Of a DNA stretch of 64,000 nt, positions 6,981 to 64,000 are shown one piece after another. The stretch spans positions 1 through 64,000 of the forward strand of contig QPGO01000187.1 of NCBI GenBank assembly GCA_008632985.1. The letters are read 5' to 3'. This stretch comes from Psammoneis japonica (taxonomy: Eukaryota). Numbering within the stretch: the first letter of the stretch is position 1; each line of letters begins with the position of its first letter. The notes under the pieces are model-generated. The model made no database searches, had not been told where the DNA came from, and saw only the letters and a program-made list of their open reading frames with translations. The position numbers and the translations under genes were made by a program.

Positions 6981-6999
6981 TGTTGTTGCTGTGGCTGTG

Positions 7000-30461: not shown

Positions 30462-30573
30462 AAGAGATGAGGCTTTGCTTAGCACAAATTAGGATACATG
30501 TTACATGTCGCCACAACAACTTCAGAGCCATTTAGAAAAAAATCTATGGCCTCTCACAGTGCATGCTAAGCAT

Positions 30574-35250: not shown

Positions 35251-35346
35251 AAACACGAGCTTACGTCACAATCAATCACGAGTTGGTGGCAGTTACAGTC
35301 GACTACTTCGACTCGATACGGCACTTTTTATTGTAGCCCTACGGTA

Positions 35347-42064: not shown

Positions 42065-43790
42065 CCTCCCAGTTGGGAGTGACCCAAACAGCTCGTGATC
42101 GTCAGCCAAAAAACTGTTTTGCCACTTGCAGCACAACAATCATGGTGACTTTAGATGACACAGGTGAGTGCAATGGAGATGGGGCCCTCCTGCTCTCTTG
42201 CCACATTTTCGACAACAAGCGCCGTGACTGTCATGCATGGCTGCACTGCATTTCTTTCTGCATCTCTGCCACATGCATTCGGACAATCAACCCAACAAGT
42301 GTAAGAAAGAAAAAATGCAAGACAAAAAGCAGAAGAGAAGTCAAGGTGCAAGGCCAAAAACAAAGGACAGAAGAGGCTTTTCGCGCACTTTCACCCAAGG
42401 CCAAGATCGATCTGGATTTTTTGGTCTCTGATGCCCGTGCAGATTTGACTGAGTTTGTTGCATGTGCCAAGTCTCATGGTGACAAGCTTCCCATGACAGA
42501 CTCAGATTCACCATGGGCAAAGTCTCAGGGTGGTGCTTCTCCACAACACCATCGAATGGCCTTTTTCAGGTGCTGACAGTGTGCAGCCAGGGCTTGGCTT
42601 CCTGTGGTGTGGTCTGCCCGTCATGTGCCACACTGCATTTTTGCTGTTGCATGCTGTCACATCTCATGGCATGCATCACAGTCTGGGGTGGCATGTCTGG
42701 GCAGCTGTTGTCCAAACAACCACATCTTGGAATTGCGCTGGAGCGGTTTTTCAATCAGCGCAAATGGGAAATTCTTCAGAAAAATTCAGCGAACAATGGA
42801 CAGACTCTGCTTTTTTCCATGAGTTGAAGCTGCAGTGACAAGAACCCAATGTGCAAATGGTGGAAGTTGTGGTGCCGACCAACAGAAACAAAGCTGTTGC
42901 TGAGAAACATGCACCAACAAGATGTGTGCAATGCACGCGCAACAACCTCTGTCGACCTGTCTTCTGTTTGTGCTCTGCTGCTGTGGCTTTGACACACTGG
43001 TTCTTGTGGAGGTCTGAGACAACAAGGAAAAGGGAAAACTTGGCTTCAGAAACAGCACAGCAGTCTCAGCATTGTGAGACTCAGATCCCTGCACAAACAG
43101 CCACACAAGATGGCCATCACATTTGGCAAGGGAACAAGCTCTGCTGTGGCATCTGTGGCGAAGTTGGCTCTCTCCACAAATGCGTGCCTTGGCAAATGGA
43201 GAAAGGAATGTGCGTGCGAACCCACCAGTGGAAGCAAATGTGGAACAGCTGCAACTGCAAGAAGAACACATGCCCCAAGCATCCTTGCCATTGAAGCACA
43301 TTCAAGATTGCTTGAGATCTTTGAGTGTGCTCCGCCTTGGGGCTCCTCGAGTCTTTTTCTTTCGAAGAAGTGTGCAGCTGTGTTTTTTTTTTGTGGTGCG
43401 GCCAATCACAAAACAGTTGCTGCACTTGCATGAAAACAGAAATCCTGTTGGTGGGGTCATGTTTTTGTTTGACATATGTTGTGAACTTTTACAACAGACT
43501 CTCTCGACTCTTTCTTTCCAATGACTTTTTTGCCAAAATGCTGGTGTGTCGCAGCTTGCAACTTTTGACTGCTCTCTTTCTTTCTGGGCTGCAGTCAACC
43601 ATTGCCACGGCAGTTTTCTGTCTTGATGACACAGCAAAGAGAAGGCCACCAGTGGTGCGTGCTGCTGCTCTTGCTGCAAGAGCAAGGCTGTCATGGTCAA
43701 ATGGCGTCAAATGCCGAACGAACTGTTGTTTCCGGGGGCTTTGAATGTCCTGACGCAGCAGGTCAGACGAGAAAGATCGCGATCTTTTCT
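42065..43790. repeat. TpA-depleted repeat; 42130-42860 has an inverted homologue at ~47020-47480 and ~49015-49185
   Basis: ALSPKAKIDLDFLVSDARADLTEFVACAKSHGDKLP (+) versus ALSPKAKTSVDFCISDACADLRKFVACTKSRGDKFP (-). Shared GGACAATCAACCCAA...TGCAAGACAAAA. Confidence 0.85.
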
Positions 43791-45184
43791 TTGCAAATCA
43801 AACTACCGGTATGAATAGTAGATTTTGGCGCACCATTGGCTGCTTGTGTCAAAGGACATGTGCATCCAGATCATGTCCAGATGAACATGATTCTTTATCG
43901 GTCGAGTCTCTGGAAGTGTGTGCTCATACCTGGTGGGTCAACGTGCCTCATAACTTGCCCTGCCAGTAGGTGTCTTTGTCAGTTTTGACATCTACCGTCC
44001 ACCATGCACCATGCACCCACATCGTACGCTCGGAAGACCAAAAACATCTCGCCAGGGCTTCATGAGCTGCCATTCCGGAGGTTCTTACAGACATATTCGA
44101 AGTGTAAAATTCGAGGCAAGTTGAAGTCAAGGAGGGAAGATCGCGAGAGCACCAGCATTAAAAGTTCGACGGAAAAGACATTGGCATACGCGTGTCGACG
44201 ACCCCTGGCAAGGTCCCTTGCTATGTTGATCGTGATAGAGTATACATTGAGCCGATGGCTTTGTCCTGATTTACTCAGAAGCCCACAACCAAAGGGCCTT
44301 ATTTGCCAGCATACGTCACAAGTGATGCTTTCATTGGCGTCATGATGTATGGTCGACGTCTCCGGTTAACAAAGATTCTGTCGATGTTGTTCAAGCAAGA
44401 AAAGCCCTTCGACTTCTGTTGATTATTGAGCCGTGCTGAGTCAAAGACAGATTATTATGCCGCCTCATTCAAGCACTGACGACAATGTGGGGTGAATACG
44501 CAATATCTAATCCAGGACAAAAATGATTTTGCGAGCAAGTGTCGGATATGTACGGTATGGTTCGTATACGGGTACTCAATGGAGTTTTCTCTCTACTACT
44601 ACAAGTAGCTGTCGTACCACATTTGTACTCCGTCGCTCGCAGCAATCGAACACAAGACGCAAAATGACGCGCCGAATGCAAGTTCTTTGATAACGAACGC
44701 TCGATTGCGCCACTAAACAGGATCCTATGGTCAGAGTAAGGTACGCATGTTTATCCAGAAAGACGAGACCGGAAATACCAAGACAAACATTGTTGTCACG
44801 AACGATTGAGTACTACACAACCGTTATCGAGTAAAGGAAAATCGCCTCAAGCACTCATTGAGACGATTTGTGTGATGGGAGCGCTACGTCGTCATTGGCA
44901 ATGCATCGTTTGCCCATGATTAATAGGACATTTAGCGTCAACTGTATCTCGTTCGCGGGTGGAAAACATTGGTACCACATTGAATAGTCCGATAATAATG
45001 TGCACTATTTTTTTTTCAACAACTAACAATCGCAAATCCACAGACCCTAACCGAGTGGGTCATACTCATCAATCTCCAACTTTTACGTTTCCTCATCTTC
45101 ATTACCGTTCTCGTCCTCCTCCTTGTTCTCGGTGACACCATAATCATTCATTTCTTCTGCTTGTTCCATAAGCTTCGATACAAA

Positions 45185-46153
45185 TTATTCCATGCCTTTG
45201 CCCTTTGCACCGCTGGAGTATGCGCCTTTGCCCTTTGAACCGCTGGAGTATGTGCCTTTGCCCTTTGCACCGCTGTAGTATGAGCTGCTTCTGCCGCCCT
45301 TACCTCCCTTCTTGCATCTGTACTTTTTCGGGCGACCAGTTAACGTCTCGAAAATAAAATCAGCAACTGACTCGGCTCCCAACCTAGTGTAGACATCTGG
45401 GGCATCTTTGGGAAGAGCAACTCTCCCAAAGGAGGTTAATCCAACCTGGAAATCTTTTGACCCATCAGTAGCACCACCTGCAACGAAAAGAGGACCGCCA
45501 CTATCTCCAAAGTATACACCTTTATCCGTCTCAAGCGCACACATCATTTCGTCAGTAATGACAGCATTTCCACCCCACTCCGTTTGGCAATCATCATTTG
45601 GAACATATCCAATAGACACAGTCTGAAGAATTGCTGGGAAAGTGCCGTCTCCAAGATCGCCGAGGCCAATAGCATCAAGTGGGTCACCATTCTCAAGCTC
45701 AGATGGATGACAGCCATCATCATAGGCGACAGTAGGAAGGCATGAAGGATTGCTCAGATGGAGCAGCTGAATGTCATAGGGTGAATCAACCACACCGAGT
45801 GTATAGTCAGGGTGGGTGTATACTTCAGCGACAGTCCTCTCGTCCTTGTCTTGTCCACCATTTCCAAATTGAACGCCCAGATCATAGGCGCCAATCATGA
45901 CCAGATCGCCAACGGCAAAGTCGCAATGAGCTGCAGTTAGTACCCATTCAGGATGAATCAATGTCCCTCCACAGGATCCCGCACCCATAATATAGGTGTA
46001 GTAAGGGTAGCGTCCCGGAACAGCATCGTTACCACCTATGACTTTCTGCAATCCCCTCTCGCGGAGTTCTGCCAGGCGGTCGTCATTCGTCGCAGCTGCC
46101 TTGGAGAGGCAATGGGAGAGAATGAGGAAGGCAGTGGCATGGAGCAACTTCAT
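45185..46153 (-). CDS. Secreted trypsin-like (S1A) serine protease with K/G/S-rich tail
   Basis: Signal peptide, K|VIGG activation site, CGGTLI, LTAAHC, DIQLL and GDSGGP. Three 30-bp C-terminal repeats. Confidence 0.92.
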   Translation of the reverse strand: MKLLHATAFLILSHCLSKAAATNDDRLAELRERGLQKVIGGNDAVPGRYPYYTYIMGAGSCGGTLIHPEWVLTAAHCDFAVGDLVMIGAYDLGVQFGNGGQDKDERTVAEVYTHPDYTLGVVDSPYDIQLLHLSNPSCLPTVAYDDGCHPSELENGDPLDAIGLGDLGDGTFPAILQTVSIGYVPNDDCQTEWGGNAVITDEMMCALETDKGVYFGDSGGPLFVAGGATDGSKDFQVGLTSFGRVALPKDAPDVYTRLGAESVADFIFETLTGRPKKYRCKKGGKGGRSSSYYSGAKGKGTYSSGSKGKGAYSSGAKGKGME

Positions 46154-49100
46154 GGTCTTCACAATATCGATGCAAAGGAACAAAGCAGATTTTGTGACCA
46201 GTCGAGAAGTCGGCCAAGATGAAATTGTGAGCAAAGAATGAAGCGAACCAAATTGCGTTGCGTCTTTTAAAACAAGCAAGAAGATTATTTGAATTTTTGA
46301 AGTTGGTGGCATTTTTCGTGACAACGTAAGACAGCACTGTGGACAGAAGCTCATTTGAGTTTTATCCATAGATATAAATGCCGATAGATTCAATAATTCG
46401 ATAGCTCATCCATGCTATTGAGCAGTTAATGCATTCATTCCAGCAGAAATTTGTTCTACCACATTCGCTTGTTCATTTAAAATCCTAACGAATGGATAGT
46501 TTTGAACTACATTCCAAATTTCTAAGTAAAAATAAAATTTCTCATATGTCCTTCATGTGCATAGATGAAATAATTATTCTTTCAACGGTTCCCCAACGCA
46601 GTTCTTTTGCTTCTTCGATTGAAGTGGCCAAGACACTTTTCAATTTTCTCTCAAGGCCATGAAAAGACTTGAAGGGGTAGCATGAGGTGAAAAATGCCCG
46701 ATTTTTTTTTTTCTGCGCGCATTTTGGTGAAAATGATGGTGAAGAATTTGCCGTGCTCACTCGCAGCTCATGGAGCTCTGTGCGCAACGCACTGAGCTTG
46801 ACTGCGGGACGTTGGCTGCAAAGTTCTGCACACACTTGATGGGGTGCATGTGGACCTCACTTCTTGAAAATGGCGGCATCTTGCATTGGAGCACAGAGCC
46901 TGCATTGGCTGGTGCGGCCATTGTCCCGAGACATGTGGTTGTGCACCATGCACGCCAGCAACACACTGAGGATCGATGACCTTGGCAGCATGTCTGGGCA
47001 GCTGCTGCCCAAACAAATTTGGCCCATTTGTGCACTGGGTTTTTGTTGACACAGCTTCAACTTATAAAAAAACCGCACAGCCTGTCTGCTGTTCACCAAA
47101 ATTTTCCCATTCGCGCTGATTGAAAAACCACTCCACTCCAGTGCAAGCACGTGATTGTGTTCAGACAGAGCAGCTGCTCTCAAATGTGCCCCCAAGACTG
47201 TGACGCACACCATGACATGCAACATTGTGCATTGGCAAAAATGCAAACCACACAGAAGCCAAGCCCTGGCCGTGCAGCACCAGCTCCTCAAAAAGCCATT
47301 TGACAGTGTTGGGCGGAGACTTGGAAAAACATCCTAAGATTCTGCCAGTTGTGAGTCTGAGTTGCCACGGGAAACTTGTCGCCACGGGACTTGGTGCAAG
47401 CAACAAACTTGCGCAAGTCTGCGCAAGCATCAGAGATGCAAAAATCCACACTGGTCTTGGCCTTGGGTGAGAGTGCAAAAAAGCATTCTGCCCCCCCCCC
47501 CCCCCTTGTCTTCTGCCTCACAGTTGGACGCTTGGTTTGGTTTCACCCATTTGGATGGCCAGGGTGCCAAGGGGGAGTTGCCTTTCCCTTTTGGGGAACA
47601 CCCAGGAAATTGGGATGATTTTGTGGGAAGGAACTCCTGAAAGAGGTCAGGGGAGGGGGAACAAAAAATGAGTGGATTGCGGGAATTTAGGATTGTTTTG
47701 ATTTAGGCTCATGTGCTTTTAATCTTGTGTGGTCGAATCCAGATCAGCTCCAGCACATCATGCGGCACTCTGGATTTGGAGCTCATTGTTGCCATTGCAT
47801 CATGTGGATGAATCTGCTTCTTTCACTGCTGCTGTTGATGCCGCTGCTGTTCTCCATCTCCAAAAGCTCCACATTGACAGAGGCCCATTGCGCGGTTTGT
47901 CAGATCATCTCGACCAAGCACTCATTGATCATCCATGGCACCAAGGTTGCTGGTTCACAAAAATGGCATGAGGAGTGTGACTTGAACCAGAGCCAAGCAC
48001 ATGACAAAGGCGCTTTGCTTGCAGTGCCATGATCTGGCAAAATTTTGGGTGGAAGGAGAGAGCGGATGAGTGAGAGCAACGCCTTTGAAGAAAAGATTAA
48101 AACAATCACACTCACCTGCACGGGACCAATCTTAGCTGCATCATGAAAAAACAGTGTGCCACAGTGCTTGGCTCCATGTGGACAGGAAGCTTGGACATCG
48201 CTTGGCATGGTTCTGGGAGATCTTGGCACCGCAGGTCTTGACGTGCATCCTCTTGATCTTTCAGAGGTGGGCAACAGCTTTCATCATGTTGAGCCCTGTG
48301 CATGACTGCTTGCACCAGCCACACATCCAGCTGTGTCCTCAGATGTGAGCTTGTCATCCCAGACACTTGTGATTTCTGGGAGCTCCTTTTTCTCTGTGAC
48401 AGCAGCGACATCGCTGTCGACACTGATGCAGGCATCATCCTGCTGCTCTTCATCACTCATGTGCCAACATGCATTTTATGAGAGAAAGTGAAACCCTGCA
48501 ATGTGAGTGGCAAAGATGATGGTGTGCGAAACTGAACAAAAAAGATGTGGGTGAGCATGCGAAGCAGAAGCATGATTGAAAAGACACCAGACGCACATCT
48601 CAACAAAAAACATGCCTGCACCGGACACGCAGCATCAAAAAGAAAGGTGTGGCATCAATGTGACAATGAACATGTTCTGAACCAACATGGTGCAGCAACA
48701 AAAAAGGCACTGCAGCTGCAGAGAAGCCAGCACAGCTGTCAATGTGTTGAGTGAACGGTGCTCCAAACTGCTGAGTGCAATGCCCTGGAATCTGCAGGTG
48801 ATGCACCATGATGTCAGTTCACAGAGGGGAAGCATGGGGAATTGCCAATGTGCAATTTTTTGTTCATGTGTTGAACATGTGTGCAATGAAGCATGATTCA
48901 TGGTGATTCCCTGAGAACTCACACTTCCTGCAGAAAACAGGGGAAAAATGTGGCAACCCCGGGGAGTTTTTGGGAATCCCACGGCAAAACCAAACTGAGT
49001 CTTGACAACTTTTTTCTGCTGTTTTGTCTTGCATCTTTTTTTCTTGCATTTGGGTTGATTGTCCAAACACACCTGGCAGAGACAGAGAAAGAAACACAGT

Positions 49101-49479
49101 GCAGCCATGCACGACAATCATTGCTCATCTTGCATGACATGGACGCACGCAGACACCATGGAAGAGTGACTTTTGGCAATGATTTTCAAAATCTCTTTGG
49201 CCCCAGTCTGTTCAAAGTTTTGCATTGTGCGTGGGTTTTGTCCATGGGGCTGAGCACCCTGCTTCATTGGTGTCTGAACTAAATGTCGGTGGGTCGAAAT
49301 GTGTCAAGCCAAGTCATTCTTCTGAAGTTGCTGACAAAGAGGAAAGTCAACATTTTCCATTCAAACAACATAAAAAAATGTGTGATTAAACATGAAAACA
49401 GCAACGGAATGACAATTGCACTTGAGTTGAATGGAGAAAATGCCGGGACAAAAAATTTTGTCCCGCGGGTGTGGAGAAA

Positions 49480-49810
49480 GTTAACAAGGACAGTTGCGCA
49501 CATGACCTTGGTGTTTGTTTTGCTTTGAAGAGGGCAGTCATTCCATTGGAGTGACCATTGTTGAGTCAGGAAACCTTCAACAACTTCAAAGAATGAGTGT
49601 GCTCAACATGCTCTTGAACCAAGTGAGTGGAGAGACACAATCATTCAAGGACAGAGAACGGTTGTGGTTGCATCACATGCCTTCATCCACTTTGTTCATG
49701 CTTTCTTCACAATGAAAAAATTCACATGAACACACTCCACTGTCAATTTCCACAATGCCCCGGTGCAACACCTGACTTGCGATCTGGTGCTCCTGCTTTC
49801 GCACACCGTG
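49480..49810 (+). pseudogene. Inverted, mutated copy of the sulfatase 3' end and downstream sequence (39625-39955)
   Basis: FEEGSHSIGVTIVESGNLQQLQRMSVLNMLLNQVSGET versus the gene's FEEGDYSIGMTIVQSGNLQQLQRMNVFNLLLNKVSGET. The downstream non-coding sequence also aligns. Confidence 0.9.
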
Positions 49811-50199
49811 CCCCACTTGCTTTTCCTCAAGGAGGAGCTGGAGCAACTTTTGCACTTGTGGTTGTCATGATGGAGATTTGGTTTGCAAATCTTGTGACGC
49901 ACCACATTGATGGTGGCAACAGATCAATGTCTGGCCAGTGTGACTGTGCTGGCACTTTGATCAATGTCAACCAACACCTGGAGATCCTGCCCCCTTTCTG
50001 ACAACTGACACTTCTTCTCAAAAAATGCTGGCAGCTTTGAAAACAGTGTCAGCGACTCTTGTGTTTCTTTCCAACAAAACAGACAAAACCTTGGGCCATC
50101 ATTTGAGCAGGAAAAATGGCAAATCAATGGATGGGAATGTTGGCAAGACGTTGTGCCTGTTGCTCCTCCACATGCAATCTCAGATTGATGTCAACATGC

Positions 50200-51420
50200 T
50201 AGAGCAATGCCAACTGTTGGCAAGCACATTTGTTCCACCTCATGCATGTTCAATTTCATCACTGGCCATTCTTCACACAAGACAAAAGAGAATGGATTAA
50301 AGCTCAAAATTCTGCCATGCTTCTGACCACATTGCAACACACAGCCCTTTTTGCCAATTGATTGGTGTGTCACCAAAAACTGCCCCCAGCATCTGGCAGA
50401 AAATGTGGTCCATTGTCGGAGATGAACTGGTCAAAACAAGTGCACCATTGACTCCCCTGAAATCAAGAAACTCATGCAATGAGACAAGGGTTGAAACAGT
50501 TTGGCATGGAGGTGGCATTGGCATTGATGTCAGGTTTCACACTCAATTTCACATGGACTCAAACTGGTGCAAGCTGCTGCATTCATGCAGATCTCATCTT
50601 TTTCTCCCCTGTTTTCCTCCTTTTTTACAAAATGTGAGCTGAGCACAGATCATTTTCATTCAGGACAAATGAGGCGGTCAAGACACTGTCATTGTCTCAT
50701 CCACAGCTTCCCAAAACAATGCTGTGGCTGCCATGCTTTTCACCCCATGCTCCTTGTCATGACTGCAGTGCATGTGCAGTGTCTTGTTTCTTGATGCTTC
50801 TGCACTGATGCAGACTCTGATCATCTCTCATTTTTGGAAGCGCTGCAATGCAAACACTCCCAAACCAGCCTTCTTTTGACAGGAAAGCTCGACTTCAAAG
50901 TGGCCCCTCCAGAGATCTCGGGACTGAAGCAGCAGCAAAAAGTGGCAAGTCAACCTGAAGTCTGCCTCACTCCAGATCATCCTTGAAGCTGCACATTCCT
51001 TGCAGCTCAATGCGACAGTGCACCCTCTCATGAAGTCTGATGCATGAGGCCTCTTCATGCTGAAGGTGCGTGTGCCGTGGTGCCAACGACTGGTGGCTCC
51101 AGCTGCCTGGCTGAGGTCACCTGCAAACACTGCATTGATGCCTCTGTGTGCTTTTTTCAAGTTTGCTTTCAATGTTGCCAGATTGCTGTGCAGTTTTTTT
51201 AGTCTCTTTTGCACGTGAATGACACCTCATCAACAACCAACGGATGGCAGATGTTGCTCCAGCCACTTTGAACTTGTTTTTTTGCAGCTTCTTTTTTCTG
51301 GTGTGAATGTGCAACTGTGTGGACAGTGTCACCTTTGAGGATGGTGGCATCAACTCCAGTCATGGCAGTGACAGCAATGGTGCATGTCGTGAACGGTTGC
51401 CACAAACGAAAGAGAGCTGC
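50200..51420 (-). pseudogene. Degenerate Pif1-like helicase (Helitron-type remnant)
   Basis: IAVTAMTGVDATILKGDTVH (motif Ia/Ib), LVVDEVSF (Walker B) and GINAVFAGDLSQ (motif III) in the correct order. Confidence 0.7.
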
Positions 51421-51571
51421 ATTGTCTCTGCCACTCAAAAACACAAGATGGAAACTGCTGTGGATTGATTGCAGCATCACAACTGTTGTGTGACGGTCAA
51501 CGAGTGCCAATTTTGCGGGGAAATCCATGATGCGTGTTGTGCGCATTGAAATAAAGTGACAACGTCTTTCG

Positions 51572-54500
51572 GGCAATCGTCCAGCTGCGCAGGCAGCTCT
51601 TCATGAACTGTGTGGGAAATGTGCTGGAACTTGTGTAGAATCCCACAACGACACAATTCCATTTCTGTGACGACAAGCAGAAATGAACGGTCCAATGTGG
51701 TGCAAGTTGCACAACGACACGAAAGAGGGAATCCTCTTCATTTCCTTCATTCCACTCAAATGATCCCGATTTGGCATGTCGCACCGTAAGAAACGGCCAT
51801 GCACATTGCACTTTGATGTGTTTCGGCATGGCAAACATCATGGGGCAGACGTGTCTTGCATGTGTGATCTCTTTCTGTCCCTGTCACAAAGAGTTTGACG
51901 CACTGGTTTGGTTTCCTGGGGGGCTTTGGTTGCAACACACGGTGCAAACGGTTGCGTGCATCGACTGGTGCCTCGATTGCTGTGCGGTGCGGGTGACATC
52001 TGAATGGTCGACAACGCCGCTGAGGTAAGTTCTTTCTGTGATTTTTCATTTTATGTCGTTTTCCCATTCACTAAAGATCATTGTTGCGTTTTGTTGCAGC
52101 TTGAAAAGTGGATGCATCGTCTCGTACGGTCGATTGTGGCATCTGTTTTTATGGCATGTTTTTCAAGTCGTTGGCGCCGCCAGAGCGTGTGTGTCTAGGA
52201 GCTTTGTGCTCCATCTCACTCTGCATCCTTTGGCGCACCTGTTGTGCATGTTAAGACAGACTTGTGATGCTCTTGACATCCTTCTTTGGGTCTTGTTCGG
52301 CGCATGATGACGGCATGTCATTTTTTGGGCGTGTCAATTTCTCAAAAGTGTGTGCCGTGGAAACAAAACGATGCGATGGAGCCTCGGGGACACTTGTGAT
52401 GGTGGCATTTGTCACACAGACTTCACATGCTCCAAAGAAGATAATCACATGAGTGCATTGTGATTGATTGAGTTTTAGAGTCGTTTTGACGAAAGTCATG
52501 CACCTCATGGGCCCATTTTTTTTTGCATCTCGTCCATGCAAGGTGGCAGCATTGGCAGCGCAGTCTGTAGACTCGCCAGCACCATTTTTTATGTCTGATC
52601 TTGAAATGGTTGCTTTTGATGTAATTGTTGGCTCAGGTGGCATTGCTGTGGCAAGGCAGTTGGCATGGGAGTCGGTGGTGCTGGATCAGCTGGTTGGCGC
52701 AGGGCGTGTGTGGTGTTGGAGCAGCTGTGTGTGTGTGTGAAGGGGGGATCAATTCAAAAACTCGGGATCAATTGTAACACCAAAAAGAGGAGGAAAGGGG
52801 GAGAACAAAATGTGGTGATCACAGGGCTGCTGTGCATCTGTCGTCGTTGAGTTCTCCGCCACCAATTCAGGAAAATGGACCGCAGCTCAAAGGGTCATGG
52901 GGAACTCCAATCATGGAATGGACAAATTGAAAGGGTGAAAATGTAGAGCTCATTGCACTTCAAAATGTGACATTGGTTTTACTGCAAAGAAGGCGTGCAT
53001 TTGCACTCGGCTGATTTTTACACGGTGAAGTGCGGCAAAAGCGAGAAAAATGCTGTTTCACGTTCTCTCTGACTTGAGGGTCAGTTGACATGGTCGATGC
53101 CTCATCAGAGATGTGAGACTTCTGCTGTTGACATTGGTCACTGTTGACATCATAAAAGCCGCAACAACATTCCAAGAAATGCAAACGAGTGCATCGTACA
53201 AAAAATTTGAAAATTTTCAGTCGTCACTGTTCGTCTGGCCATCGCACGTGCGCTCTGAACCCACCACGCCCTCTCTCTCCCCTCTCCTTTTCCTCTTCCT
53301 TTTTTCATAAACTCGGAGCTACCTGTGTGACCGGACATGTGCCCTTTCGGGCAATCGTCCAGCTGCGCAGGCAGCTCTTCATAAACTGTGTGGGAAATGC
53401 ACCGGAACTTGTGTGGAATCCCACAACAACACAATTCCATTTCCATGGCGACAAGCAGAAATGAACGGTCCAATGTGGCACAAGTTGTGCAATGACACGA
53501 AAGAGGGAATCCTCTTCATTTCCTTCATTCCACTCAAATGATCCCGATTTGGCATGTCGCACCGTATGAAACGGCCATGCACATTGCACTTTGGTGTGTC
53601 TCGGCATGGCAAACATCGTGGGGCAGACGCATTTTGCATGTGTGATCTCTTTCTTTCCCTGTCATAAAGAGTTTGACACACTGGTTTGGTTTCCTGGGGG
53701 GCTTTGGTTGCGACACACGGTGCAAACGGTTGCGTGCATCGACTCGTGCCTTGATCACTGCGCGGCACGGGTGACATCTGAATGGTCGACAACGCCGCCG
53801 AGGTGGGTTCTTTCTGTGTTTTCTCATTTTATGTCGTTTTGTTGTTCACCAAAGATCATTGTTGCGTTTTGTCACAGCTTGAAAAGTGGATGCATCGTCT
53901 CGTACGGTTGATTGTGGCATCTGTTTTTATGGCATGTTTTTCAAGTCGTTGGCGCCGCCAGAGCGCATCCGTTTAGGAGCTTTGTGCTCCATCCCACCAT
54001 GCATCCTTTGGCGCACCTGTTGTGCATGTTAAGACAGACTTGTGACGCTCTTGACATCCTTCTTGGGGTCTTGGTCGGCGCATGATGACGGCATGTCATT
54101 TTTTGGGCGTGTCAATTTCTCAAAAGCATGTGCCGCGGAAACAAAACGACGCGATGGAGCCTCGGGGACACTTGTGATGGTGGCATTTGTCACACAGACT
54201 TCACATGCTCCAAAGAAGACAATCACATGAGTGCATTGTAATTGATTGAGTTTTAGAGTCGTTTTGATGAAAGTCGCACACCTCATGGGCCTTTTTTTTT
54301 GCGTCTCGTTCATGCAAGGTGGCAGCATTGGCAGCGCAGTCTGTAGACTTGCCAGCACCATTTTTTATGTCTGATCTTGAAATGGTTGCTTTTGATGTAA
54401 TTGTTGGCTCAGGTGGCATTGCTGTGGCAAGGCAGTTGGCATGGGAGTCGGTGGTGCCGGATCAGCTGGTTGGCGCAGGGCATGTGTGGTGTTGGAGCAG

Positions 54501-56901
54501 CTGTGTGTGTGTGAAGGGGGATCAATTCAAAAACTCGGGATCAATTGCAACACCAAAAAGAGGAGGAAAGGGGGAGAACAAAATGTGATGATCACAGGGC
54601 TGCTGTGCATCTGTCATCGCTGAGCTCTCCGTCACCAGCTCAGGAAAATGGGTTGCAGCTCAAAGGGTCATGGGAACTCCAATCATGGAACAGACAAATT
54701 GAAAGGACAAAAATGTAGAGCTCATTGTGCTTCAAAATGCAACCTTGGTTTTACTGCAAAGAAGGCGTGCATTTGCACTCGGCTGATTTTTACACGGTGA
54801 AGTGCGGCAAAAGCGAGAAAAATGCTGTTTCACGTTCTCTCTGACTTGAGGGTCAGTTGACATGGTTGATGCCTCATCAGACATGTGAGACTTCTGCCAT
54901 TGACATTGGTCACTGTTGACATCATAAAAGCCACAACAACATTCCAAGAAATGCAAACGAGTGCATCGCACAAAAAATTTGAAAATTTTCAGTCGTCACC
55001 ATGTGTCTGGCCATCGCCCGTGCGCTCTGAACCTGTTGTGCCCTCTCTCTCCCCTCTCCTTTTCCTCTTCCTTTTTTTCATAAACTCGGAGCTGCCTGCG
55101 TGACCGGACACATGCCCTTTCAGGCAATCGTCCAGCTGCGCAGGCAGCTCTTCATAAACTTTGCAGGAAGTGCACTGGAACTTGTGCAGAATCCTGTGAT
55201 GACACAATTCCATTTCTACAAAGACAAGCAGAAATGAACGGTCCAATGTGGCACAAGTTGTGTGACGACACGAAAGAGGGAATCCTCTTCATTTCCTTCA
55301 TTCCACTCAAATGATCCCGATTTGGCATGTCGCGCCATAAGAAATGGCCATGCACACTGCACTTTGATGTGTCTCAGCATGGCAAACATTGTGGGGTGGA
55401 CGCATTTTGCATGTGTGATCTCTTTCCATCCCTGTCACAAAGAGTTTGACACACTGGTTTGGTTTCCTGGGGGGCTTTGGTTGTGACACATGGTGCAAAC
55501 GGTTGCGTGCATTGACTCGTGCCTTGATTGCTGCATGGCACGGGCAACATCTGAGTGGCCGACAATGCCGCCGAGGTGGGTTCTTTCTGTGTTTTCTCAT
55601 TTTGTGTCGTTTTCCCATTCACTGAAGATCATTGTTGCATTTTGTTGCAGCTTGAAAAGTGGATGCATCATCTCGCATGGTTGATTGTGGCATCTGTTTT
55701 TATGGCATGTTTTTCAAGTCATTGGCACCGCCAGAGCGTGTCCGTTTAGGAGCTTTATGCTCCATCCCACTCTGCATCCTTTGGTGCACCTGTTGTGCAT
55801 GTTAAGACAGACTTGCGACGCTCTTGACATCCTTCTTTGGGTCTTGTTCGGCGCATGATGACGGCATGTCATTTTTTGGGCATGTCAATTTCTCAAAAGC
55901 ACATGCCGCGGAAACAAAACGATGCGATGGAGCCTCGGGGATGCTTGTGACGGTGGCATTTGTCACACAGACTTCACATGCTCCAAAGAAGATGATCACA
56001 TGAGTGCATTGTGATTGATTGAGTTTTAGAGTCGTTTTGACGAAAGTCGCACACCTCGCGGGCCTTTTTTTTTTGCGTCTTGTTCATGCAAGGTGGCAGC
56101 ATTGGCAGCGCAGTCTGTAGACTCACCAGCACCATTTTTTATTTCTGATCTTGAAATGGTTGCTTTTGATGTAATTGTTGGCTCAGGTGGCGTTGCTGTG
56201 GCGAGGCAGTTGGCATGGGAGTCGGTGGTGCTGGATCAGCTGGTTGGCGCAGGGCGTGTGTGGTGTTGGAGCAGCTGTGTGTGTGTGAAGGGGGGATCAA
56301 TTCAAAAACTCGGGATCAATTGCAACACCAAAAAGAGGAGGAAAGGGGGAGAACAAAATGTGATGGTCACAGGGCTGCTGTGCATCTGTCGTCGCTGAGT
56401 TCTCCTTCGCCAATTCAGGAAAATGGATTGTAGCTCAAAGGGTCATGGGGAATTCTGATCATGGAATAGACAAATTGAAAGGATAAAAATGCAGAGCTCA
56501 TTACACTTCAAAATGTAACATTGGTTTTACTGCAAAGAAGGCGTGCATTTGCACTCGGCTGATTTTTACACGGTGAAGTGCGGCAAAAGCGAGAAAAATG
56601 CTGTTTCACGTTCTCTCCGACTTGAGGGTCAGTTGACATGGTCGATACCTTATTAGAGATGTGAGACTTCTACTATTGACATCGGTCACTGTTGACATCA
56701 TAAAAGCCGCAACAACATTCCAAGAAATACAAACGAGTGCATTGTACGAAAAATTTGAAAATTTTCATTCGTCACTATTCGTCTGGCCATCGTACGTGCG
56801 CTCTGAACCTATGTATTACGCCCTCTCTCTCCCCTCTCCTTTTCCTCTTCCTTTTTTTCATCAACTCGGAGCTACAGTACCTACGTGACCGGACATATGC
56901 C
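51572..56901. mobile_element. Head-to-tail trimer of a ~1.77-kb non-autonomous TIR element (51572-53343, 53350-55116, 55123-56901)
   Basis: Three alignable units with imperfect TIRs (GGCA...TGCC). The 8-bp direct repeat GTCTTTCG flanks the array (51564-51571, 56902-56909). Six-bp spacers CTTTCG and CTTTCA lie between units. Confidence 0.85.
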
Positions 56902-56960
56902 GTCTTTCGTTCAACAATTGAAATTCAACGAAGAACAGCAACGTTATTACAAGCCCCACA

Positions 56961-57971
56961 ATGCTGCTACAACCGTCAACAAGTCCTGATTTGTGGGATA
57001 AAGTTGTGGTTGATTTGGAGGAACAAGGAGGAATGGCGGTAGTAAAGGTTCCAATGATGTTGGAAGAGGTGCACAGACGAGGCTTTGAAGCAGCACGTAA
57101 GGAGTTATTGCAGAGCCCTCCACTGCAGTTTCCACACTTTTGTATTCCTCCAGATGCAGACTCGGCTCATGTTACTGGATATCATGAACCCTCCACCAAT
57201 GGGAGTATGAGTCGGTACAATGCCTATCGAGAAGGGTTTGTCTTTTCAGATGGCAACCTTTTGGATCTTAGCGATGAGCAATTTCGAACGTCTATGGAAC
57301 TCTTGTTTCAGTCAATGCATGACTGTATTGCTCAGCAAACTCTAAGTGCCATTGAACGTAAACTGGAATTACCGGTTGGTTGGTTTCAAGAGGAAATGGG
57401 ACCGACACATGACCACAGCCAGTGGCATGTGAAGCAATTCGTAACCCCATCTAAGAAAAACGAGAGCGAGGAGACGCAAAGAAGAAATAATATTCAAGAC
57501 AAGGACGACTCGGAGGAATTCATATGGCTACCAATGCATACAGATCCCTCATTAATTTCCGTTGTTCTGCATGATGCGCCTGGAATACAAAAAGGAGGCA
57601 TGGGGTTGGAAATATATCAAGCTTCCTCCACACACAAGAACAAAAAGCGAGAATGGGTGGAGGTCCCCCATCACGGACACTGCGTTGCTACCATTTTAGT
57701 AGGAAGCGTCCTTTCCTACATGATGGGGAGTAATCAATTATTTTCATCGGCAAAGCATCGCGTCGTGTACTCTCCAGAGCACAACAATCGAATGGCTGCT
57801 ACTTTGTTTGTTCGACCGCGACCCACAGCCATGCTGCAAGTACCACCGTCACCTCTGCTTACCCATGTCGTATTGAAGAAGCCTACCGACTTTCATACAT
57901 GGTGTACACGTGTCGCTAGAAACTATCAAAAGAAGCAAAAGAAGACTAAAACGACCCCAGCAAAGGACTAA
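56961..57971 (+). CDS. 2-oxoglutarate/Fe(II) dioxygenase (IPNS/DIOX-like)
   Basis: HTDPSLIS (HxD), GLEI, SAKHRVV (distal His) and RMAATLF (2OG-binding Arg). Confidence 0.88.
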   Translation: MLLQPSTSPDLWDKVVVDLEEQGGMAVVKVPMMLEEVHRRGFEAARKELLQSPPLQFPHFCIPPDADSAHVTGYHEPSTNGSMSRYNAYREGFVFSDGNLLDLSDEQFRTSMELLFQSMHDCIAQQTLSAIERKLELPVGWFQEEMGPTHDHSQWHVKQFVTPSKKNESEETQRRNNIQDKDDSEEFIWLPMHTDPSLISVVLHDAPGIQKGGMGLEIYQASSTHKNKKREWVEVPHHGHCVATILVGSVLSYMMGSNQLFSSAKHRVVYSPEHNNRMAATLFVRPRPTAMLQVPPSPLLTHVVLKKPTDFHTWCTRVARNYQKKQKKTKTTPAKD

Positions 57972-58108
57972 TCGACCCACCCTATCACAGGCCGCGAAAA
58001 GAATCCGAGTTGGTGCCGTAGCCCTTTTTTACTAGCACAGTCAAAAGATGTGTCAGGATATAGCAACGGTTTTATGGACTTAAATTCGCAACCAAAGAAG
58101 TTGGCAGT

Positions 58109-61100
58109 CTATGGCCACCAGGAAATGACACTGCAAACATCTGTTCCAATGGCGGAAACCTTGCTCTCAGAGTCCGCTAGGCTCGACCGAGCCATCCTCA
58201 GGATCTTCTCCTTGTGAGGTAGCAGCGCCTCTAGCAAAAGCTCCCTATCCAAGCTGCTTTGGGTCCCAGTGCTGGAATATGCAGCAGACTTAGTCTTGTT
58301 AGGACCAGCGCGACCCACGAGTTCATACAATAGCTTTAATCCGGCATATCTGTGGCAACGGGAAGCCGAACTGTGAGTCAAAGGAGGCAGCTGCAATGCT
58401 TTTTCTCAGATAAAAGGAACTTACCTTACACGCCAGAATTTCCGATCTTTCAGAGCCTGGGCAGAGCAATCAAGAAGAATCGAGATCGTTTCGAGCTTCC
58501 TCAACTCAACCAAGTCACACTTTGCGACCAACACTGAAGCTGCGAGTACGGATGACTCTCGCACAGTCCATGCAGCTTGTTTCTCGCCGCCTGCACTTTG
58601 CAGCAGCTTGGACAGTTCAAGAACCGACTCAAACTTCGTACACTCAGCTTTCCCGTCTTTCGATCCTATCCCTTCCCACATTGCTGACGCAACACAATCA
58701 ATCGACCTCGCCACGATGACGGGTGGTTCCGCGTCGTGCCTCGTCGTGGTCGAACCAAATTGATTTTCCGTGTCAATAACGCCGACCAGTCTTGTCGAAA
58801 CCAAGTTGTAAATGCGAGGGAGGTAAAGTGTACCCTCTGAGGAATTCAAGCTATTTAATAGATCAGACAACCCTTTCAATGAGGCAGCTCTGTACGGAAG
58901 AACTTCAGAAGAAAGACCAGATGACGACTCGGCGATATTCGGCATTCCTTGTTCTAGCAGTGTTCTGCATAAGCCATGAAACGTCAACACACTAGATTTC
59001 TCGTCAAGCAGCTGCACCTCCATTTCGTCGTCTGTGTTAGGCGAGCTTATGTCGCCAAGTATGTTGTCGCAATCCTGAAAGTCGATGTCAGTAACAGATT
59101 TCTCAGGAACCTCGCTCTCAATTTCCGACGTATTGTCCATTAAACTTGACTCTTTGATAGGTTCGATATACTCTTCACCAATTTTGTTTTGTTCTTCAAA
59201 CCAACAATCTCCAACAAAGAGATCGTTCTTCGATACAGCACTCGACACAAGAAGAGGAGTCCATGGACATATCGACTCACTGCCTCTTTCCCACCCCATG
59301 GCGAGACCGCTGGAAGGTCCATCGCCGCTGCCAACCGAAGTCCATTTCGATGCCATCTTTACGCAAGCATTTACAACTTCAGCCTTTCCCGACCAAATTC
59401 TAGGTCTGTTGATAAGAGTTACGCAATGCACCAGCGCTATATTTGCAGCTTGTGCCCTGCGCTTTGCTCTGGAGATTCGATTGCTATCTATCTTTTCAAG
59501 AGAACTGCCATCGACAGTTCTAGGCGCTGGAGCGAGAACGTTCATGTCAGTAAGTTCGGCCAGTGCAGCACAACCAGCAATTCTCCTTGACCAAGATACA
59601 TCTTCAAGGGCGTCAACACAAGCGCGAACCAAATATGGAAGTAACTTCTCTTCAAGATGGACGCCAAAGTCAGCAGAACGAACCGATCCCATTTTTGAGG
59701 AATCATTTGCTGTTGACCCTCCTTCTTCCCATACTTCCTTCCACAGTGAAGCTACCTTGGCATCCGAGTCTCGCTGGCCGAGAAATGCAACAGGCAGCAC
59801 ATTTCTGCACCATATGTCGTTCACCCCCCCATCAGCAAACTGCGAAGTAGCACGCACCGCAATTGCACGGATCGCCGAGGCTGCCGCTCGTCGAGCAGCA
59901 GGATCATCGTTGTTGCCTTGTGCCCCATTGTATCTCTCACAAGTTCGAAGTGCTAAGGCTCGCACCGTGGGCCCAGGAGAAAGCGCAGCAATGTTTCCCA
60001 AGGCATGCGCCATTTTGTCACGAGCACCAAGACCGCGTTCACGTTCGCTTGCAAAGTAAAGTGCCCGAAGTAAACGTACCGTCGGGTTTGTCGAGGACTG
60101 CCCGGAAAATTTGAACGCACCTGGGCAGGCAGCACATAAAGAAGACACAGCGTCAGCAGCGGCTGCTCGTGTTGCAAACCCAGCTCCACAACGAAGCGCC
60201 GAATCGAGCTGCGGTATTACCGCTTTTTGTGTACTAATGTCAGTAGACTTCGTCATGTCAAGGCATTTTGTCAACGCTCCTGCAACTGGGCCGGTCTGAG
60301 CCATCTGCAAACGTAGGCGTTCGAGTCGATCATAAGCTCCTTCTCCGGATGAAGCCGACGTTTCACCAGCCGTCCTCACCTGAACATAGTTCAGAGCAGC
60401 TGGTTCCAGTCCAGACATCGCCATCAACAAAGATCCGATTAACTCCGGCAGAACCGCCTGTAACTGTTGTGGACGCACCGCGTCGATGACGCCAACAAGA
60501 CACGATAGGCATACGCCCGTTGCTTCTGCACACGCTTGGTTCAGACCATGTCTCACAAGCCACCGCAACGCAGTTGCTGCTGCCGCTGCTGCGTCACGGT
60601 CAAACTTCGAAAACAATTCCTCAGTCGGCGCACTGGGTGAGTCTTTTTCGCCTTTTGTTGCTGATGGATCGCACAAACGGATGGTTAGACTCCGGACACT
60701 GCGGGCTAGTGTCTCACCGCTATCGCGAACATTAGAACGTACGTCGTCCATTGCCCGCATGGACGTTCTCCACAATCGCAATAAGCGGATTGCAGCAGTT
60801 GTAGCTGCACCTTTGGCTGGACTTGCAATGTCTTCATCGTCGAAAATAGCCCCCCCTCCTCCTAAATCCTCCCACGAACGACCGACGATTACGTCCGCTA
60901 GAGCTGCACAAGCGCCAACCCGCGCTCTCCAAAGTTTATTGGATGCATCGTCGATCAATGCATCTATCGTAGATGTTAGGTGTAAGGTAATCGCCAGCCT
61001 TGATTCTGCCCCGCCGCCGGTAAGTCCCACCCACAACGTTGACATTTGTTCACGGGTTTGCTTGTTTGGGTCGTTGCACGCACGCAGAAGCCTTGGAATC

Positions 61101-64000
61101 AACGCCTGCAGATGAGGACGTAACGCTTCACGGATTTCAGAGGCATTTCTTTGATTTCCGACTATTGACTTCTCTCCCAAGAGAGAAGCAGCGCTGTATC
61201 GGTCACGGCGGCCCTCCGTGAACCACAGTGGATGAGATACCGAAAGCAACATTAATGCATAAAGAATGTCGGGTCTGCCCAAAGCCACAGCAGCTGATGC
61301 CATCTCTCGGTATGCGCCCAACGCAGCTTCCCCAATACCTGAGGCTCCTCCAACTTCAGTTTCCATGCCAAAAGATTCAACCATCGATGGTGTGGACGTT
61401 TCTCCACTGCCGCGGTCGCTATCGTTTCTTCGATGTCGCTCTGCTGCCTGGGCGGAAGTCTCCATCATCGCACTCCCACCGTAATTCGTTGTCTGTCCAA
61501 AAGCTCTTAGGAGTTGATCATTTAAAACAGGCGACACACGTTTATGACTCAACGTGACCGATGTCGACACCGAATCAGCAAGGCCTTGGCATGCAGCAAG
61601 ACCGAGACAGCAGCTTTCTCTTGCGAGTTGCTTAGACTTTGGAAAAGCCAACAAGAAGATAAAGGCCGACTGGATTTCTTCGAGCCTTCCGATAAGCTCG
61701 TATGTGAACGCCCGCTTTGTCATGCCATCGCTGCTGTTTACCTGAGTGCAAACAGCAAACAATAAAGGTGAGCAACAATTGGACTCAAAGCCAAACGAGG
61801 AATCCCTTGCACCGCCTACCATTTTCGCAGCACGGCCAACCAGAGCAAGGAGTGCCGAAGCACAGGATGTTCGCTTGTGAGGGCTTGAGGAAGCCATTTC
61901 CCTCTTGAGAAGAATGTACAGGACCTTGTGAAACGAAAAAAAAAACATTTGAGTCACTCCGAGGCTTGTTACAAGTGTGCCGAAATTTCTGCAGCTCTTA
62001 CCTGTTGGTGTGGTGGAAGATTATTTGAGAAGTCGTCATCGTACTCCTCTGGCCATACAGCAGATTCAGACGTCCACACAGCGCCCGGCGGGCTGAAGGC
62101 ATCAGCATACAACGCAAGAGCTTCACCAGTTACAAGCGCAAGCTCTTCGTCCTTTCGAAATGAAGACGACCCAAGCAAACTGAACAACGCATCCAAACTA
62201 AATCAAGCAAACATCAATGAGGATACAGACGCATAATTCATTGGAAGCACAGCTACGTGTACATAGCGCTCACCATTGAATTCTAGACGGGCCAAGTTCC
62301 ATTGCTTCATCAAGCCCTGCAGTAGAAGTGACACAACCTGCGCCAGAGGTAGTTGCCGCGAGCACCATTCCGGTCGCTTCGGCCAGAGCAGATGCCCTAA
62401 CGGGGTCTGTGCTGTCGCCATTTCCATACTTTCTAATTGCGCGATTAAGGTTCGTGAGCGCCGCAGCGCTACAATTGTAAAGCTGCTCGTTCAAGATGGG
62501 TGCATCGAAACCTTCATAAGAGAGCGCGATGACGAGACTTTGAGCGCAGGCATTGCCAATAACTTCGTCAGAATTCAACGTCCCGAGACCAAGGCATGTC
62601 ACAATGGTCTCCGCAAGGTTCCAACATGACTTGATTACTTCTCCTTTTGGTGCTGCTTCAGCGGTGTTGCTTTCTTGCGCAGCTTTCAAGCGAAATGCTC
62701 GGACACAGCTTGCTCCCAGAAAAGCTGATCCGTGCACTTCCCCAACCATGAACAAATTACTTCGCATGTTTGTGAGTTTTCCAGAACACAGATCCATGGC
62801 TCGCGTAATCTCGGAATTCATTACCCAGTCATAGAGACTGCAAGAATCGTCGTTTCCTCTTCCACCGCACCATAGCTCGTAGTCCTCATAAACGTGGCCA
62901 CAAGCTTCGGCGAGGTACCTCCGTGCCTTGGATGAAAATGCTGAAACTGCAAGGCTCTCCATATTTCTCAAGCTAAGGGATGATTTGTTACTCACAATCA
63001 TTGATCGAGCAAACCTTGACGTTGACAAGCATCCAGCTAAACACACGGAGCCTTGGTCCAGCAAATCTATCGACTCGCGTCCTGTCCCTTCTCGGGCGGA
63101 TACAAAAAGCACTAATGTGTCGGCTAATGCTTGGAAATAAGTATCAACCGAATCATCTTCACCGCCATACAAGTCATTGTACAGACAAATGAGACCAAAA
63201 TTTAACGTTGCCGCCTTGCCCGCATGTGAGAAATCAAGGTATCGTGGTCTCCATGACGAAGTCGACACGCCGTTATCGGTAGCAGGCGTTTTTGATTCAA
63301 ACACAAGCGTGACAAGGTCACGAAAGTCTGGTAGAGAGGGAGATGCATTCCTTGGTGGAGTCTCGACTCTTGCGCTTCCTTCCGTGGACAGCCCTAGTCC
63401 TTGCATGGCAATACTCGAAGCTGTCACGTCAGGGTCACCGGTCAAAAAACACAAGAGATGACAGGCCCTCGGCAAATCCAAAGCTTTTAAAAGATCTGTC
63501 GCCCACCTAGCAGCAGCGACTCTTGAGGCCTTTGGTTGTGAAGTTTGTGCTGCAGTCCAGAGGAGGGGGAGCAAAGCATTCGAGAGGATTATTCTGTTGT
63601 TGCCGGTGTCGTTCGTAGAAGCTACAGTATCCTCTCCAATGGGATGAGAATCAGAGGTAGTCATGTCACTCCAAGGATTGGATGTGGCTTGCGCATCAAC
63701 ATCCATTGCATCCTCACTTTCTGACGTGGGGGCAGGTGTATCAGGTGATGACTGACCAAGAGAATTTCTGTTGTACACCCGACAGTAGGAGGCTAGAAGC
63801 GCATCTAGGGCAGCCACGGCTCTTGGTCTCAACGTTTCGACTTCATTGGATGTACATCCAAACAAAAGAGCGGCCGTTTCAATCGAAACAGCCATTGTAC
63901 CGGAAGTGGTGTACCCCGAATTGTTGGAGGGAGCGCCACAGGTAAACACACCACCTTGACGCGCCGTTGCATAGTTCGACCTGCAAACAGCACAGACAAT
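58109..64000 (-). CDS. ECM29: Proteasome adaptor ECM29 (HEAT repeats), 5'-partial
   Basis: YREMASAA, LIPRLLRACNDPN...MSTLW, LWRARVGACAAL, RAMDDVRSNVR and MSGLEPAALNY. GT-AG introns 58350-58424 and 61925-62001. Frame break near 62270. Confidence 0.88.

Follow-up and report, generated by a model that had tools for sequence, protein, structure and literature searches.

Probable loss of TpA dinucleotides within discrete islands of a diatom contig, as recorded by a tandem triplication

In this work we analyzed positions 1 to 64,000 of contig QPGO01000187.1 from the diatom Psammoneis japonica (assembly GCA_008632985.1), a 64-kb stretch hereafter referred to as the window, which embeds three head-to-tail copies of a 1.78-kb unit at 51566-53343 (c1), 53344-55116 (c2) and 55117-56909 (c3). 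The comparison of the three copies with each other, with the rest of the window and with related sequences suggests, with good confidence, that TA steps have been converted into either TG or CA, that this conversion depends on the dinucleotide context, and that it is restricted to sharply bounded islands, outside of which TA is retained.

The tandem array and the direction of change

The three units were delimited by a BLAST search of 50001-58500 against itself and by a MAFFT alignment; the array had been missed by Tandem Repeats Finder because its 1.78-kb period exceeds the limit of 500 nt of that program, and self-BLAST was used instead. Unit identity is 93.2% between c1 and c2 and 91.4% between c1 and c3, and the alignment at an offset of two units gives 92.3%. 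The first two copies (1778 nt, non-coding, and 1773 nt, respectively) are entirely included in a TA-poor island and have 22 and 18 TA left. The third one, 1793 nt long, is crossed by the border of the island: its portion at 55117-56430 (alignment columns 0 to about 1316) has 11 TA per 1314 nt, whereas the terminal 480 nt or so (56431-56909) lie beyond the island, have 24 TA per 479 nt and retain ancestral TA and CG.

An earlier note on this DNA, based on the sequence only, had reported four sites at which an ancestral TA, still present in c3, had become TG in c1 and CA in c2. The alignment revealed that all four TG/CA/TA triplets are present, at columns 1353 (52919/54691/56467), 1402 (52968/54740/56516), 1560 (53126/54898/56674) and 1782 (53338/55111/56896). 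As regards the extent, the note fell short, in that its four sites understate a process which is window-wide and island-restricted. Indeed, they are 4 of the 12 steps with state set {TG,CA,TA} among the 435 aligned pyrimidine-purine (YR) steps; in these 12, TA is found in c3 at nine and in c1 at three. The ungapped columns are 1772, and 196 of them are variable (177 by transition, 18 by transversion and one with three states), with 66 adjacent pairs of variable columns; as many as 147 of the 196 belong to variable YR steps. The invariant YR steps comprise 152 TG, 122 CA, 42 CG and 11 TA. The sets containing CG are {CG,CG,TG} (19), {CA,CG,CG} (13), {CG,TG,TG} (11), {CA,CA,CG} (7) and {CA,CG,TG} (5), while, in addition to the 12 mixed steps, those containing TA are {TA,TG,TG} (8), {CA,CA,TA} (5), {TA,TA,TG} (3) and {CA,TA,TA} (3); the variable sets devoid of both are {CA,CA,TG} (14) and {CA,TG,TG} (8).

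The YR steps were fitted with a four-state Markov model (CG, TG, CA and TA) allowing single transitions only, on a star tree with free root frequencies and branch lengths. The rates obtained per branch were 0.517 for TA>TG (and the same for TA>CA), approximately 0 for TG>TA, 0.12 for CG>TG and 0.017 for TG>CG, with about 67 of the 435 steps being TA at the root. A model lacking TA hypermutability had a log-likelihood (lnL) of -1045.28 compared to -1003.03 of the full one (a deficit of 42.3 units with one degree of freedom, p = 4e-20), and a model lacking CG hypermutability reached -1019.31 (a cost of 16.3 units, p = 1e-8). The view that TA is the ancestral state is thus borne out by a posterior for a TA root of about 1.0 at (TG,CA,TA) sites and by the nearly null rate of TG/CA>TA; at the TG/CA double differences without an intermediate the posterior is 0.76-0.95. 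Since transitions at non-YR columns (30 variable out of 902) correspond to a background of about 0.011 per site per branch, the decay of TA into TG or CA is about 47 times, and that of CG about 11 times, faster than the background transition rate, CG decay being about four to five times slower than TA decay. About 64% of TA was lost per copy against a background divergence of about 1% per branch.

The hits are independent in the different copies and fall on either strand, as had been proposed. At the 3' end of the unit, where c3 retains TA and both of the other copies have changed, c1 and c2 differ (TG/CA or CA/TG) at eight steps and agree (TG/TG or CA/CA) at eight; over the whole array the inferred TA lost in both copies had the same outcome in 19 cases and a different one in 21. 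These proportions are therefore those of independent coin flips, for which a 1:1 ratio is expected. No clustering of same-strand events was observed, the ratios of same to opposite strand in adjacent decays being 24/18, 23/23 and 15/16 for the three copies, and no deciding effect of the flanking bases on the choice of the strand was seen. The flanks matter for survival: 47% of the TA in TTA/TAA contexts were kept, compared to 21-29% with other flanks, and 10 of the 11 invariant TA are in that context. As a separate observation, the outcome of the lost TA is biased between copies, with a TG:CA ratio of 28:15 in c1 and 18:29 in c2 (Fisher p = 0.013), without local runs; this could be due either to chance or to a copy-wide strand bias.

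The distal end of c3 is the most informative part of the array. The onset of TA at 56431 is sharp, following a gap which starts at 56172, and all four sites of the earlier note fall within 56431-56909. Relative to c1, the branch of c3 is 1.76 times as long for the YR steps of the island part and 0.14 times as long for those of the 3' end, and at columns 1504, 1569 and 1633 c3 retains CG where c1 and c2 share TG/TG or CA/CA. Because of this short branch and of the retained CG, the end of c3 is to be considered the least changed copy rather than one that has gained TA. This segment precedes by 52-530 nt the ATG of a gene coding for a 2-oxoglutarate-Fe(II) (2OG-Fe(II)) oxygenase (56961-57971, forward strand; PF03171, E = 6e-8; TA observed/expected ratio, o/e, 0.65), which lies directly downstream of the array. 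The same segment in c1 and c2, now inside the island, has lost both TA and CG.

Concerning the nature of the unit, no open frame longer than 149 codons (stop to stop) and none with a Pfam match was found in the three copies, and neither an Rfam scan at gathering thresholds nor ARAGORN gave any match or tRNA. The terminal 250 nt or so of one unit together with the initial 750 nt or so of the next one, as well as 48919-49752, have a read-contig depth of 500-700 and are therefore covered by dispersed repeat families. Each unit also harbors an intron-like stretch (52026-52100 in c1), with GTAAGT ... TTGCAG in c1 and GTGGGT in the other two copies; a spliced transcript may have included the unit in the past, or may still do so.

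TA-poor islands, their borders and the sequences around them

The landscape of the window, analyzed per kb, is bimodal: TA o/e is 0.0-0.16 in some regions, where TG and CA reach 1.6-2.0, and 0.3-0.9 elsewhere (0.57 for the non-island DNA overall). The TA-poor regions form about seven sharply bounded islands that account for 25,134 of 64,000 nt (39%), a tally which still divides the first island at 10349-10965. They contain 5.1 TA per kb versus 40.0 outside; the TpA/ApT ratio is 0.089 versus 0.62 and the (CpA+TpG)/(ApC+GpT) ratio 1.89 versus 1.29. The frequencies of the remaining twelve dinucleotides are close to normal, TG and CA are about equally abundant, and the GC content is unchanged (0.46-0.50).

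The array belongs to the island at 46572-56430 (9859 nt), which includes both single-copy and dispersed-repeat parts and has a TA o/e of 0.04-0.22 per kb bin. The others are located at 6935-12774 (5840 nt, poor in both TA and CG), 22659-26622 (3964 nt, with 20 TA, 22 CG, 435 TG and 445 CA), 32039-35294 (3256 nt, still fairly CG-rich, with 13 TA and 108 CG) and 42060-43804 (1745 nt, with four TA). We are unsure about the status of a possible small island at 29396-30480 (1085 nt, six TA, 39 CG), because it overlaps a 254-codon open frame, for which no Pfam match was found. A break in the first island at 10349-10965 was also considered and rejected; this segment has only a few TA, and every one of them is in a TTA/TAA context. 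The islands adjoin upstream regions of genes, and their borders are sharp within about 10-100 nt. Dense TA on the left of the array island extend up to 46575 (border at 46571/46575), the next one being at 46678; the island at 42060-43804 is sharply delimited at 42059 and 43804; on the right of the island at 32039-35294 (left border 32038), TA occur at 35160, 35262 and 35294 and then every 10 nt or so from 35304 onwards. No convincing terminal inverted repeats were detected at the borders of this last island.

CpG o/e across the islands ranges from 0.02 to 0.76 per kb bin, while the loss of TA is near complete throughout; the loss of TA thus outpaces that of CpG and can occur without it. The TA surviving in the islands are mostly in TTA, TAA or TTAA-like contexts, e.g., at 10460-10970, and of the 78 tallied 35 have a T on the 5' side and 31 an A on the 3' side. 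The flanks of the survivors hint at a flank preference of the agent.

The polarity suggested by the array was in agreement with sequences outside of it. The island at 32039-35294 contains a 432-codon open frame (32169-33464, reverse strand) with 572 relatives at E<=0.001 in a representative library. A Pfam search on the frame itself gave nothing even at E<=1, and its family was assigned through three of its relatives (P0124, P0127 and P0128), which carry PF13359, DDE_Tnp_4; we take this domain to mark Harbinger/PIF-type transposases and label the frame as a relic of one of them. In the alignment with the best 70 of 151 retrieved relatives (at least 250 residues long), seven columns have tyrosine in at least half of the sequences; at these, the relic has four cysteines (TGC, TGC, TGT and TGC), two histidines (CAT and CAC), one serine and no tyrosine. 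The control residues were largely kept: phenylalanine at 11 of 11 columns, tryptophan at two of two, cysteine at three of three, glycine at 14 of 17 and arginine at seven of 10, six of which are still encoded by CGN. In total, the relic has one tyrosine, 25 histidines and 21 cysteines in 432 residues, compared to 28, 16 and 7 in P0124. The homology of the relic ends near residue 388, about 40 residues into the DDE_Tnp_4 domain of its relatives, so that its catalytic part is missing or frame-shifted. The second comparison concerns two paralogous segments sharing 85% identity over 333 nt, one in the array island (49481-49811, forward strand) and the other in normal DNA (39626-39952, reverse strand): at nine steps a TA of the latter is matched by TG or CA in the former, the reverse occurring at none (p = 0.004), and the CG counts are 11 vs 5. 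This segment of 330 nt is shared by a 328-codon frame in normal DNA (39795-40781, no Pfam match) and by an island repeat present in about ten copies; either a gene may have captured part of a transposon, or the opposite may have happened.

Genes and the DNA adjacent to them behave differently. In ten frames (6126 codons) the TA o/e at codon positions 1-2, 2-3 and 3-1 is 0.43, 0.53 and 0.48, respectively, and the CG o/e is 0.86-0.97; since the synonymous 3-1 junction reveals no extra loss of TA, genes have been spared and not merely selected. The same was observed between two frames on the reverse strand that match ECM29, at 58421-61957 (with relatives 55-69% identical, the named ones being from Thalassiosira and other diatoms) and at 62270-63949; the latter aligns (E = 4e-15) with an ECM29 protein of 1979 residues, over its residues 487-824, so that the two frames belong to one gene, of which the latter is an upstream exon. 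The stretch of 312 nt separating them, which includes intron-like GT...AG sequences, contains 13 TA and 17 CG. Exons, introns and gene-adjacent upstream regions are spared. A further control is offered by a 183-nt unit repeated six times in tandem (88-93% identity) at 30574-31663, outside the islands; this array has a TA o/e of 0.89 and a CG o/e of 1.07, therefore tandem repetition alone is not the trigger.

The island containing the array is reproduced in read contigs too. A public run, here coded X1, contains 81% of the sampled words of 48000-57900, and its Logan contigs (exact 31-mers, word depth about 54-72) cover 46000-47505, 47491-47873, 47855-48328, 48304-48866, 48842-49178 and 49446-51587 with 3, 1, 0, 1, 0 and 1 substitutions, respectively, over about 5.3 kb. 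The contigs of a second run (X2) cover seven of 30 bins, and those of a third (X3) none. The depth is about 60 in the single-copy parts of the island, compared to the 500-700 of the repeat parts, and no TA is present in the single-copy DNA at 49753-51420 (depth about 64-67). The X1 contigs exclude that the pattern was created by consensus calling or polishing during the assembly, and strengthen the opinion, already expressed in the earlier note, that a simple basecalling artefact does not account for the pattern. From the window to X1, the six substitutions are TG>CG (two), CA>CG (one), TA>CA (two) and one non-YR change; hence, two of the differences fall on TA that survive in the island (23 at most), versus four on about 5000 other positions. 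This hints at an elevated rate of de novo mutation at the TA which are still present in the island.

Possible mechanisms and alternative explanations

The scenario we propose is that, in the nuclear DNA of this diatom, the 1.78-kb unit was triplicated in tandem where an island of silent DNA derived from transposons has its border. Inside such islands TA is changed into TG or CA site by site, with equal odds for the two strands and independently in each copy. The islands would correspond to silenced chromatin of transposon origin, and the targeting might be set by the position within the silenced domain rather than by the origin or the repetition of the sequence. Positional targeting is suggested by the fact that host upstream DNA was hit once duplicated into the domain, while the border copy next to the gene was left untouched. 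As for the chemistry, the adenine of 5'-TA-3' might be deaminated on either strand into inosine, which is read as G, as proposed for Bigelowiella natans; we advance adenine deamination as the agent only tentatively. The decay of CpG in the same silenced DNA may be ordinary deamination of 5-methylcytosine (5mC). If this scenario were correct, then diatoms would possess a chromatin-domain-guided editing that erases TpA in silenced DNA as a form of genome defence, with a chemistry opposite to that of fungal repeat-induced point mutation (RIP), shared with Rhizaria and possibly old in the Stramenopiles-Alveolata-Rhizaria (SAR) clade, an idea that we put forward just as tentatively.

Some observations weigh against this interpretation. 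The model relies on a star tree with a single rate for each class, and the rates are heterogeneous, because 11 TA are intact in all three copies and survival in TTA/TAA contexts is about doubled. The absence of same-strand runs mildly disfavors a processive single-strand deaminase. One island only contains an identified transposon relic; 51 open frames with 120 codons or more were searched in the islands, and the other 50 had no significant match in Pfam (a weak one with ABCC10_N, E = 0.007, is below the threshold). X1 may derive from the very sample used for the assembly, in which case it would not represent an independent isolate. Lastly, in 18 metagenome loci around ECM29 homologues of other diatoms (42-59% identity in 17 of them and 35% in a weak 18th) no 500-nt bin had a TA o/e lower than 0.28 and no island was found; since these contigs are gene-dense, they say little about the silent DNA of the relatives, and the process may be lineage-restricted or the contigs may simply lack silent DNA.

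Different forces other than deamination might have led to the loss of TA. The one we regard as possible, even though unlikely, is that TpA in the islands carries a heritable modification (e.g., an oxidised or glycosylated thymine, such as 5-hydroxymethyluracil, or N6-methyladenine on the palindromic TA), and that wrong pairing or faulty repair of the modified base leads to T>C or A>G. Such a mark would parallel 5mC at CG, both targets being self-complementary YR steps that allow a symmetric maintenance; TA and CG do decay within the same sharply bounded domains; single-site, strand-random hits without runs are what the spontaneous decay of a mark would leave; and in dinoflagellates 5-hydroxymethyluracil prefers TpA. 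However, the decay of TA is nearly complete even where the CG o/e is still 0.65-0.76, so that the two marks would need to be laid separately, and, among the matches listed in a literature search on diatom 5-hydroxymethyluracil, the papers were, judging from their titles, on dinoflagellates. A third and weaker option is represented by an error-prone repair synthesis. We regard as improbable a homology-triggered process, similar to RIP in fungi, by which DNA would be destined for mutation through its very duplication. It is true that the array and other parts of its island are repeated, and DNMT4 enzymes with a relationship to RID, a factor of RIP, are encoded by diatoms (PMC9998398), which is a lead rather than evidence; nevertheless, RIP creates TpA and the island process destroys it, the end of c3 is equally duplicated and yet spared, the single-copy DNA at 49753-51420 is TA-free, and the array of six 183-nt units outside the islands retains its TA.

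Three further explanations have an even lower probability. According to the first of them, mentioned as a formal alternative in the earlier note, the mixed sites were originally CG, with one change each in c1 and c2 and two (CG>TG>TA) in c3. Decay of CG into TG or CA is real in this array, as revealed by the 19 {CG,CG,TG}, 13 {CA,CG,CG} and five {CA,CG,TG} steps and by the 16.3 lnL units that its removal costs. But {CA,CG,TG} is limited to those five cases, and from the YR counts, assuming a uniform CpG decay of about 0.2 per copy, we calculated that fewer than one fully decayed mixed step is predicted, versus 22 observed; the posterior of a CG root at the (TG,CA,TA) sites is 0.000 and the rate of TG/CA>TA about 0; the end of c3 keeps CG lost in the other copies and is thus the least changed; TA is lost, and not gained, across the window; and the tyrosine codons of the relic have become cysteine or histidine ones while six conserved CGN arginine codons remain. 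CpG decay as the sole cause is, on this evidence, very unlikely. A comparably low probability is assigned to the possibility that a long-read consensus misread modified CG and TA as TG or CA, randomly in each copy, even though such an artefact would likewise give strand-symmetric, coin-flip calls limited to modified domains. Indeed, the X1 contigs match 5.3 kb of the island with six substitutions, a consensus taken column by column from strand-discordant calls would be expected to contain CG and TA as well, both of them nearly absent, and both the tyrosine changes and the asymmetry of the paralogues would require an identical artefact in every read. Finally, it appears hardly credible that TA and CG are removed from non-coding DNA by selection or by biased gene conversion. 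TA is mildly under-represented in most genomes, and in the non-island DNA of the window its o/e is already only 0.57; on the other hand, about 64% of TA was lost per copy at a background divergence of about 1%, for which weak per-site selection is too slow, GC-biased conversion would favor CG, which is lost instead, and introns and upstream regions retain TA.

Comparison with known systems and other features of the window

The closest known case is the TpA hypermutation of silent viral inserts in the chlorarachniophyte B. natans, and the diatom islands look like a new, more extreme example of this kind. The main text of the preprint describing it (Mettrop et al., bioRxiv 10.64898/2026.01.13.699255) reports that 231 of 302 de novo nuclear mutations occurred in two silent viral inserts, 230 of these 231 being A>G or T>C, all at TpA; that 124 clusters of 1-kb windows are depleted in TpA and enriched in CpA+TpG; that DDE-endonuclease and reverse-transcriptase domains are enriched among the TpA-depleted genes; and that an ADAT2-like adenine deaminase was proposed as the agent. 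The two systems share the changes TpA>TpG and TpA>CpA on both strands, their confinement to separate regions within a nuclear genome that is otherwise normal, the clustered depletion of TpA with an excess of CpA+TpG, and DDE-endonuclease sequences among the depleted ones. In the window, too, the changes, apart from the additional CpG decay, are near-exclusively A>G/T>C at TpA, and they are regional (islands versus genes); as for foreign or mobile targets, we found one transposase relic and dispersed repeats, and host upstream DNA was also hit.

There are differences as well. The host is a diatom, i.e., a stramenopile, rather than a rhizarian; the depletion is deeper (o/e 0.03-0.1 over 39% of the window, versus a Rho of 0.45 reported in the preprint for a nucleocytoplasmic large DNA virus (NCLDV) insert); and it is accompanied by CpG decay, which is not part of the B. 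natans account in the preprint's main text, where the words "CpG" and "diatom" do not occur (bioRxiv 10.64898/2026.01.13.699255). There the evidence came from viral inserts in mutation-accumulation lines, as that text describes, whereas here it is comparative and no viral genes were seen by Pfam in the open frames of the islands; what the array adds to the picture drawn there is that DNA of the host becomes a target when it comes to lie in an island. Our full-text literature searches gave no report of TpA hypermutation in diatoms or other stramenopiles.

Other systems resemble the islands in part. RIP shares with them the dinucleotide-context transitions that ruin transposons and leave compositionally distinct blocks with sharp edges, but it consists of C>T changes, mainly at CpA, that create TpA and AT-rich DNA, whereas A>G/T>C changes remove TpA here and leave GC constant; accordingly, the two dinucleotide ratios of the islands (0.089 and 1.89) run in the opposite way, and a dependence on duplication is unsupported. 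The CpG decay of methylated transposons in vertebrates and plants is similar in that CG>TG/CA changes occur in silent repeats, at about 11 times the background, and in excess on both strands (0.12 versus 0.017 for the reverse TG>CG). However, it explains the slower half of the process only and can neither remove TA nor turn tyrosine codons into cysteine or histidine ones. The methylation of transposable elements in diatoms has been reported (PMC9998398). The deaminases of the ADAR/ADAT type perform A>G changes with a T or U just on the 5' side, as discussed in the main text of the B. natans preprint (bioRxiv 10.64898/2026.01.13.699255); they are known mainly on RNA, and their action on diatom nuclear DNA is a candidate one.

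Targeted TpA hypermutation was described once before, in the 2026 chlorarachniophyte preprint; a saturating process affecting about 39% of a 64-kb diatom window suggests that it may be widespread in marine protists and able to shape a large share of a genome. The triplication represents a natural experiment which separates position from sequence origin, and yields, in vivo, the relative rates of TA and CG decay as well as the context preferences, TTA/TAA being half as sensitive. As diatoms are genetically tractable, candidate deaminases or base modifications are directly testable. There are practical consequences, too. Relics of transposons and viruses are disguised, with tyrosine read as cysteine or histidine and the stops TAA and TAG gone, and, because of the removal of these stops, gene finders will call long false frames in the islands. 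In the window such frames, without homology, are as long as 304 codons, e.g., at 34248-35159 and 23462-24217, since TAA and TAG were erased together with TA. Composition screens combining TpA/ApT and CpA+TpG can map silent DNA without epigenomic data.

A dinoflagellate-like origin of the window, considered at first in view of the link between TA and 5-hydroxymethyluracil, was discarded, given that diatoms provide the best named relatives of the ECM29 protein. Other frames of the window carry typical eukaryotic domains. The one at 36615-39305 (forward strand) codes for 896 residues; a 5'-nucleotidase C-terminal domain spans residues 89-226 and a class-3 seven-transmembrane receptor domain residues 468-716, an unusual pairing of a ligand domain with a G-protein-coupled receptor (GPCR). 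The frame at 16620-18992 (reverse strand, 790 codons, no Pfam match) has internal repeats with 68-71% identity at 16896-18592 and probably codes for a repeat-containing protein.

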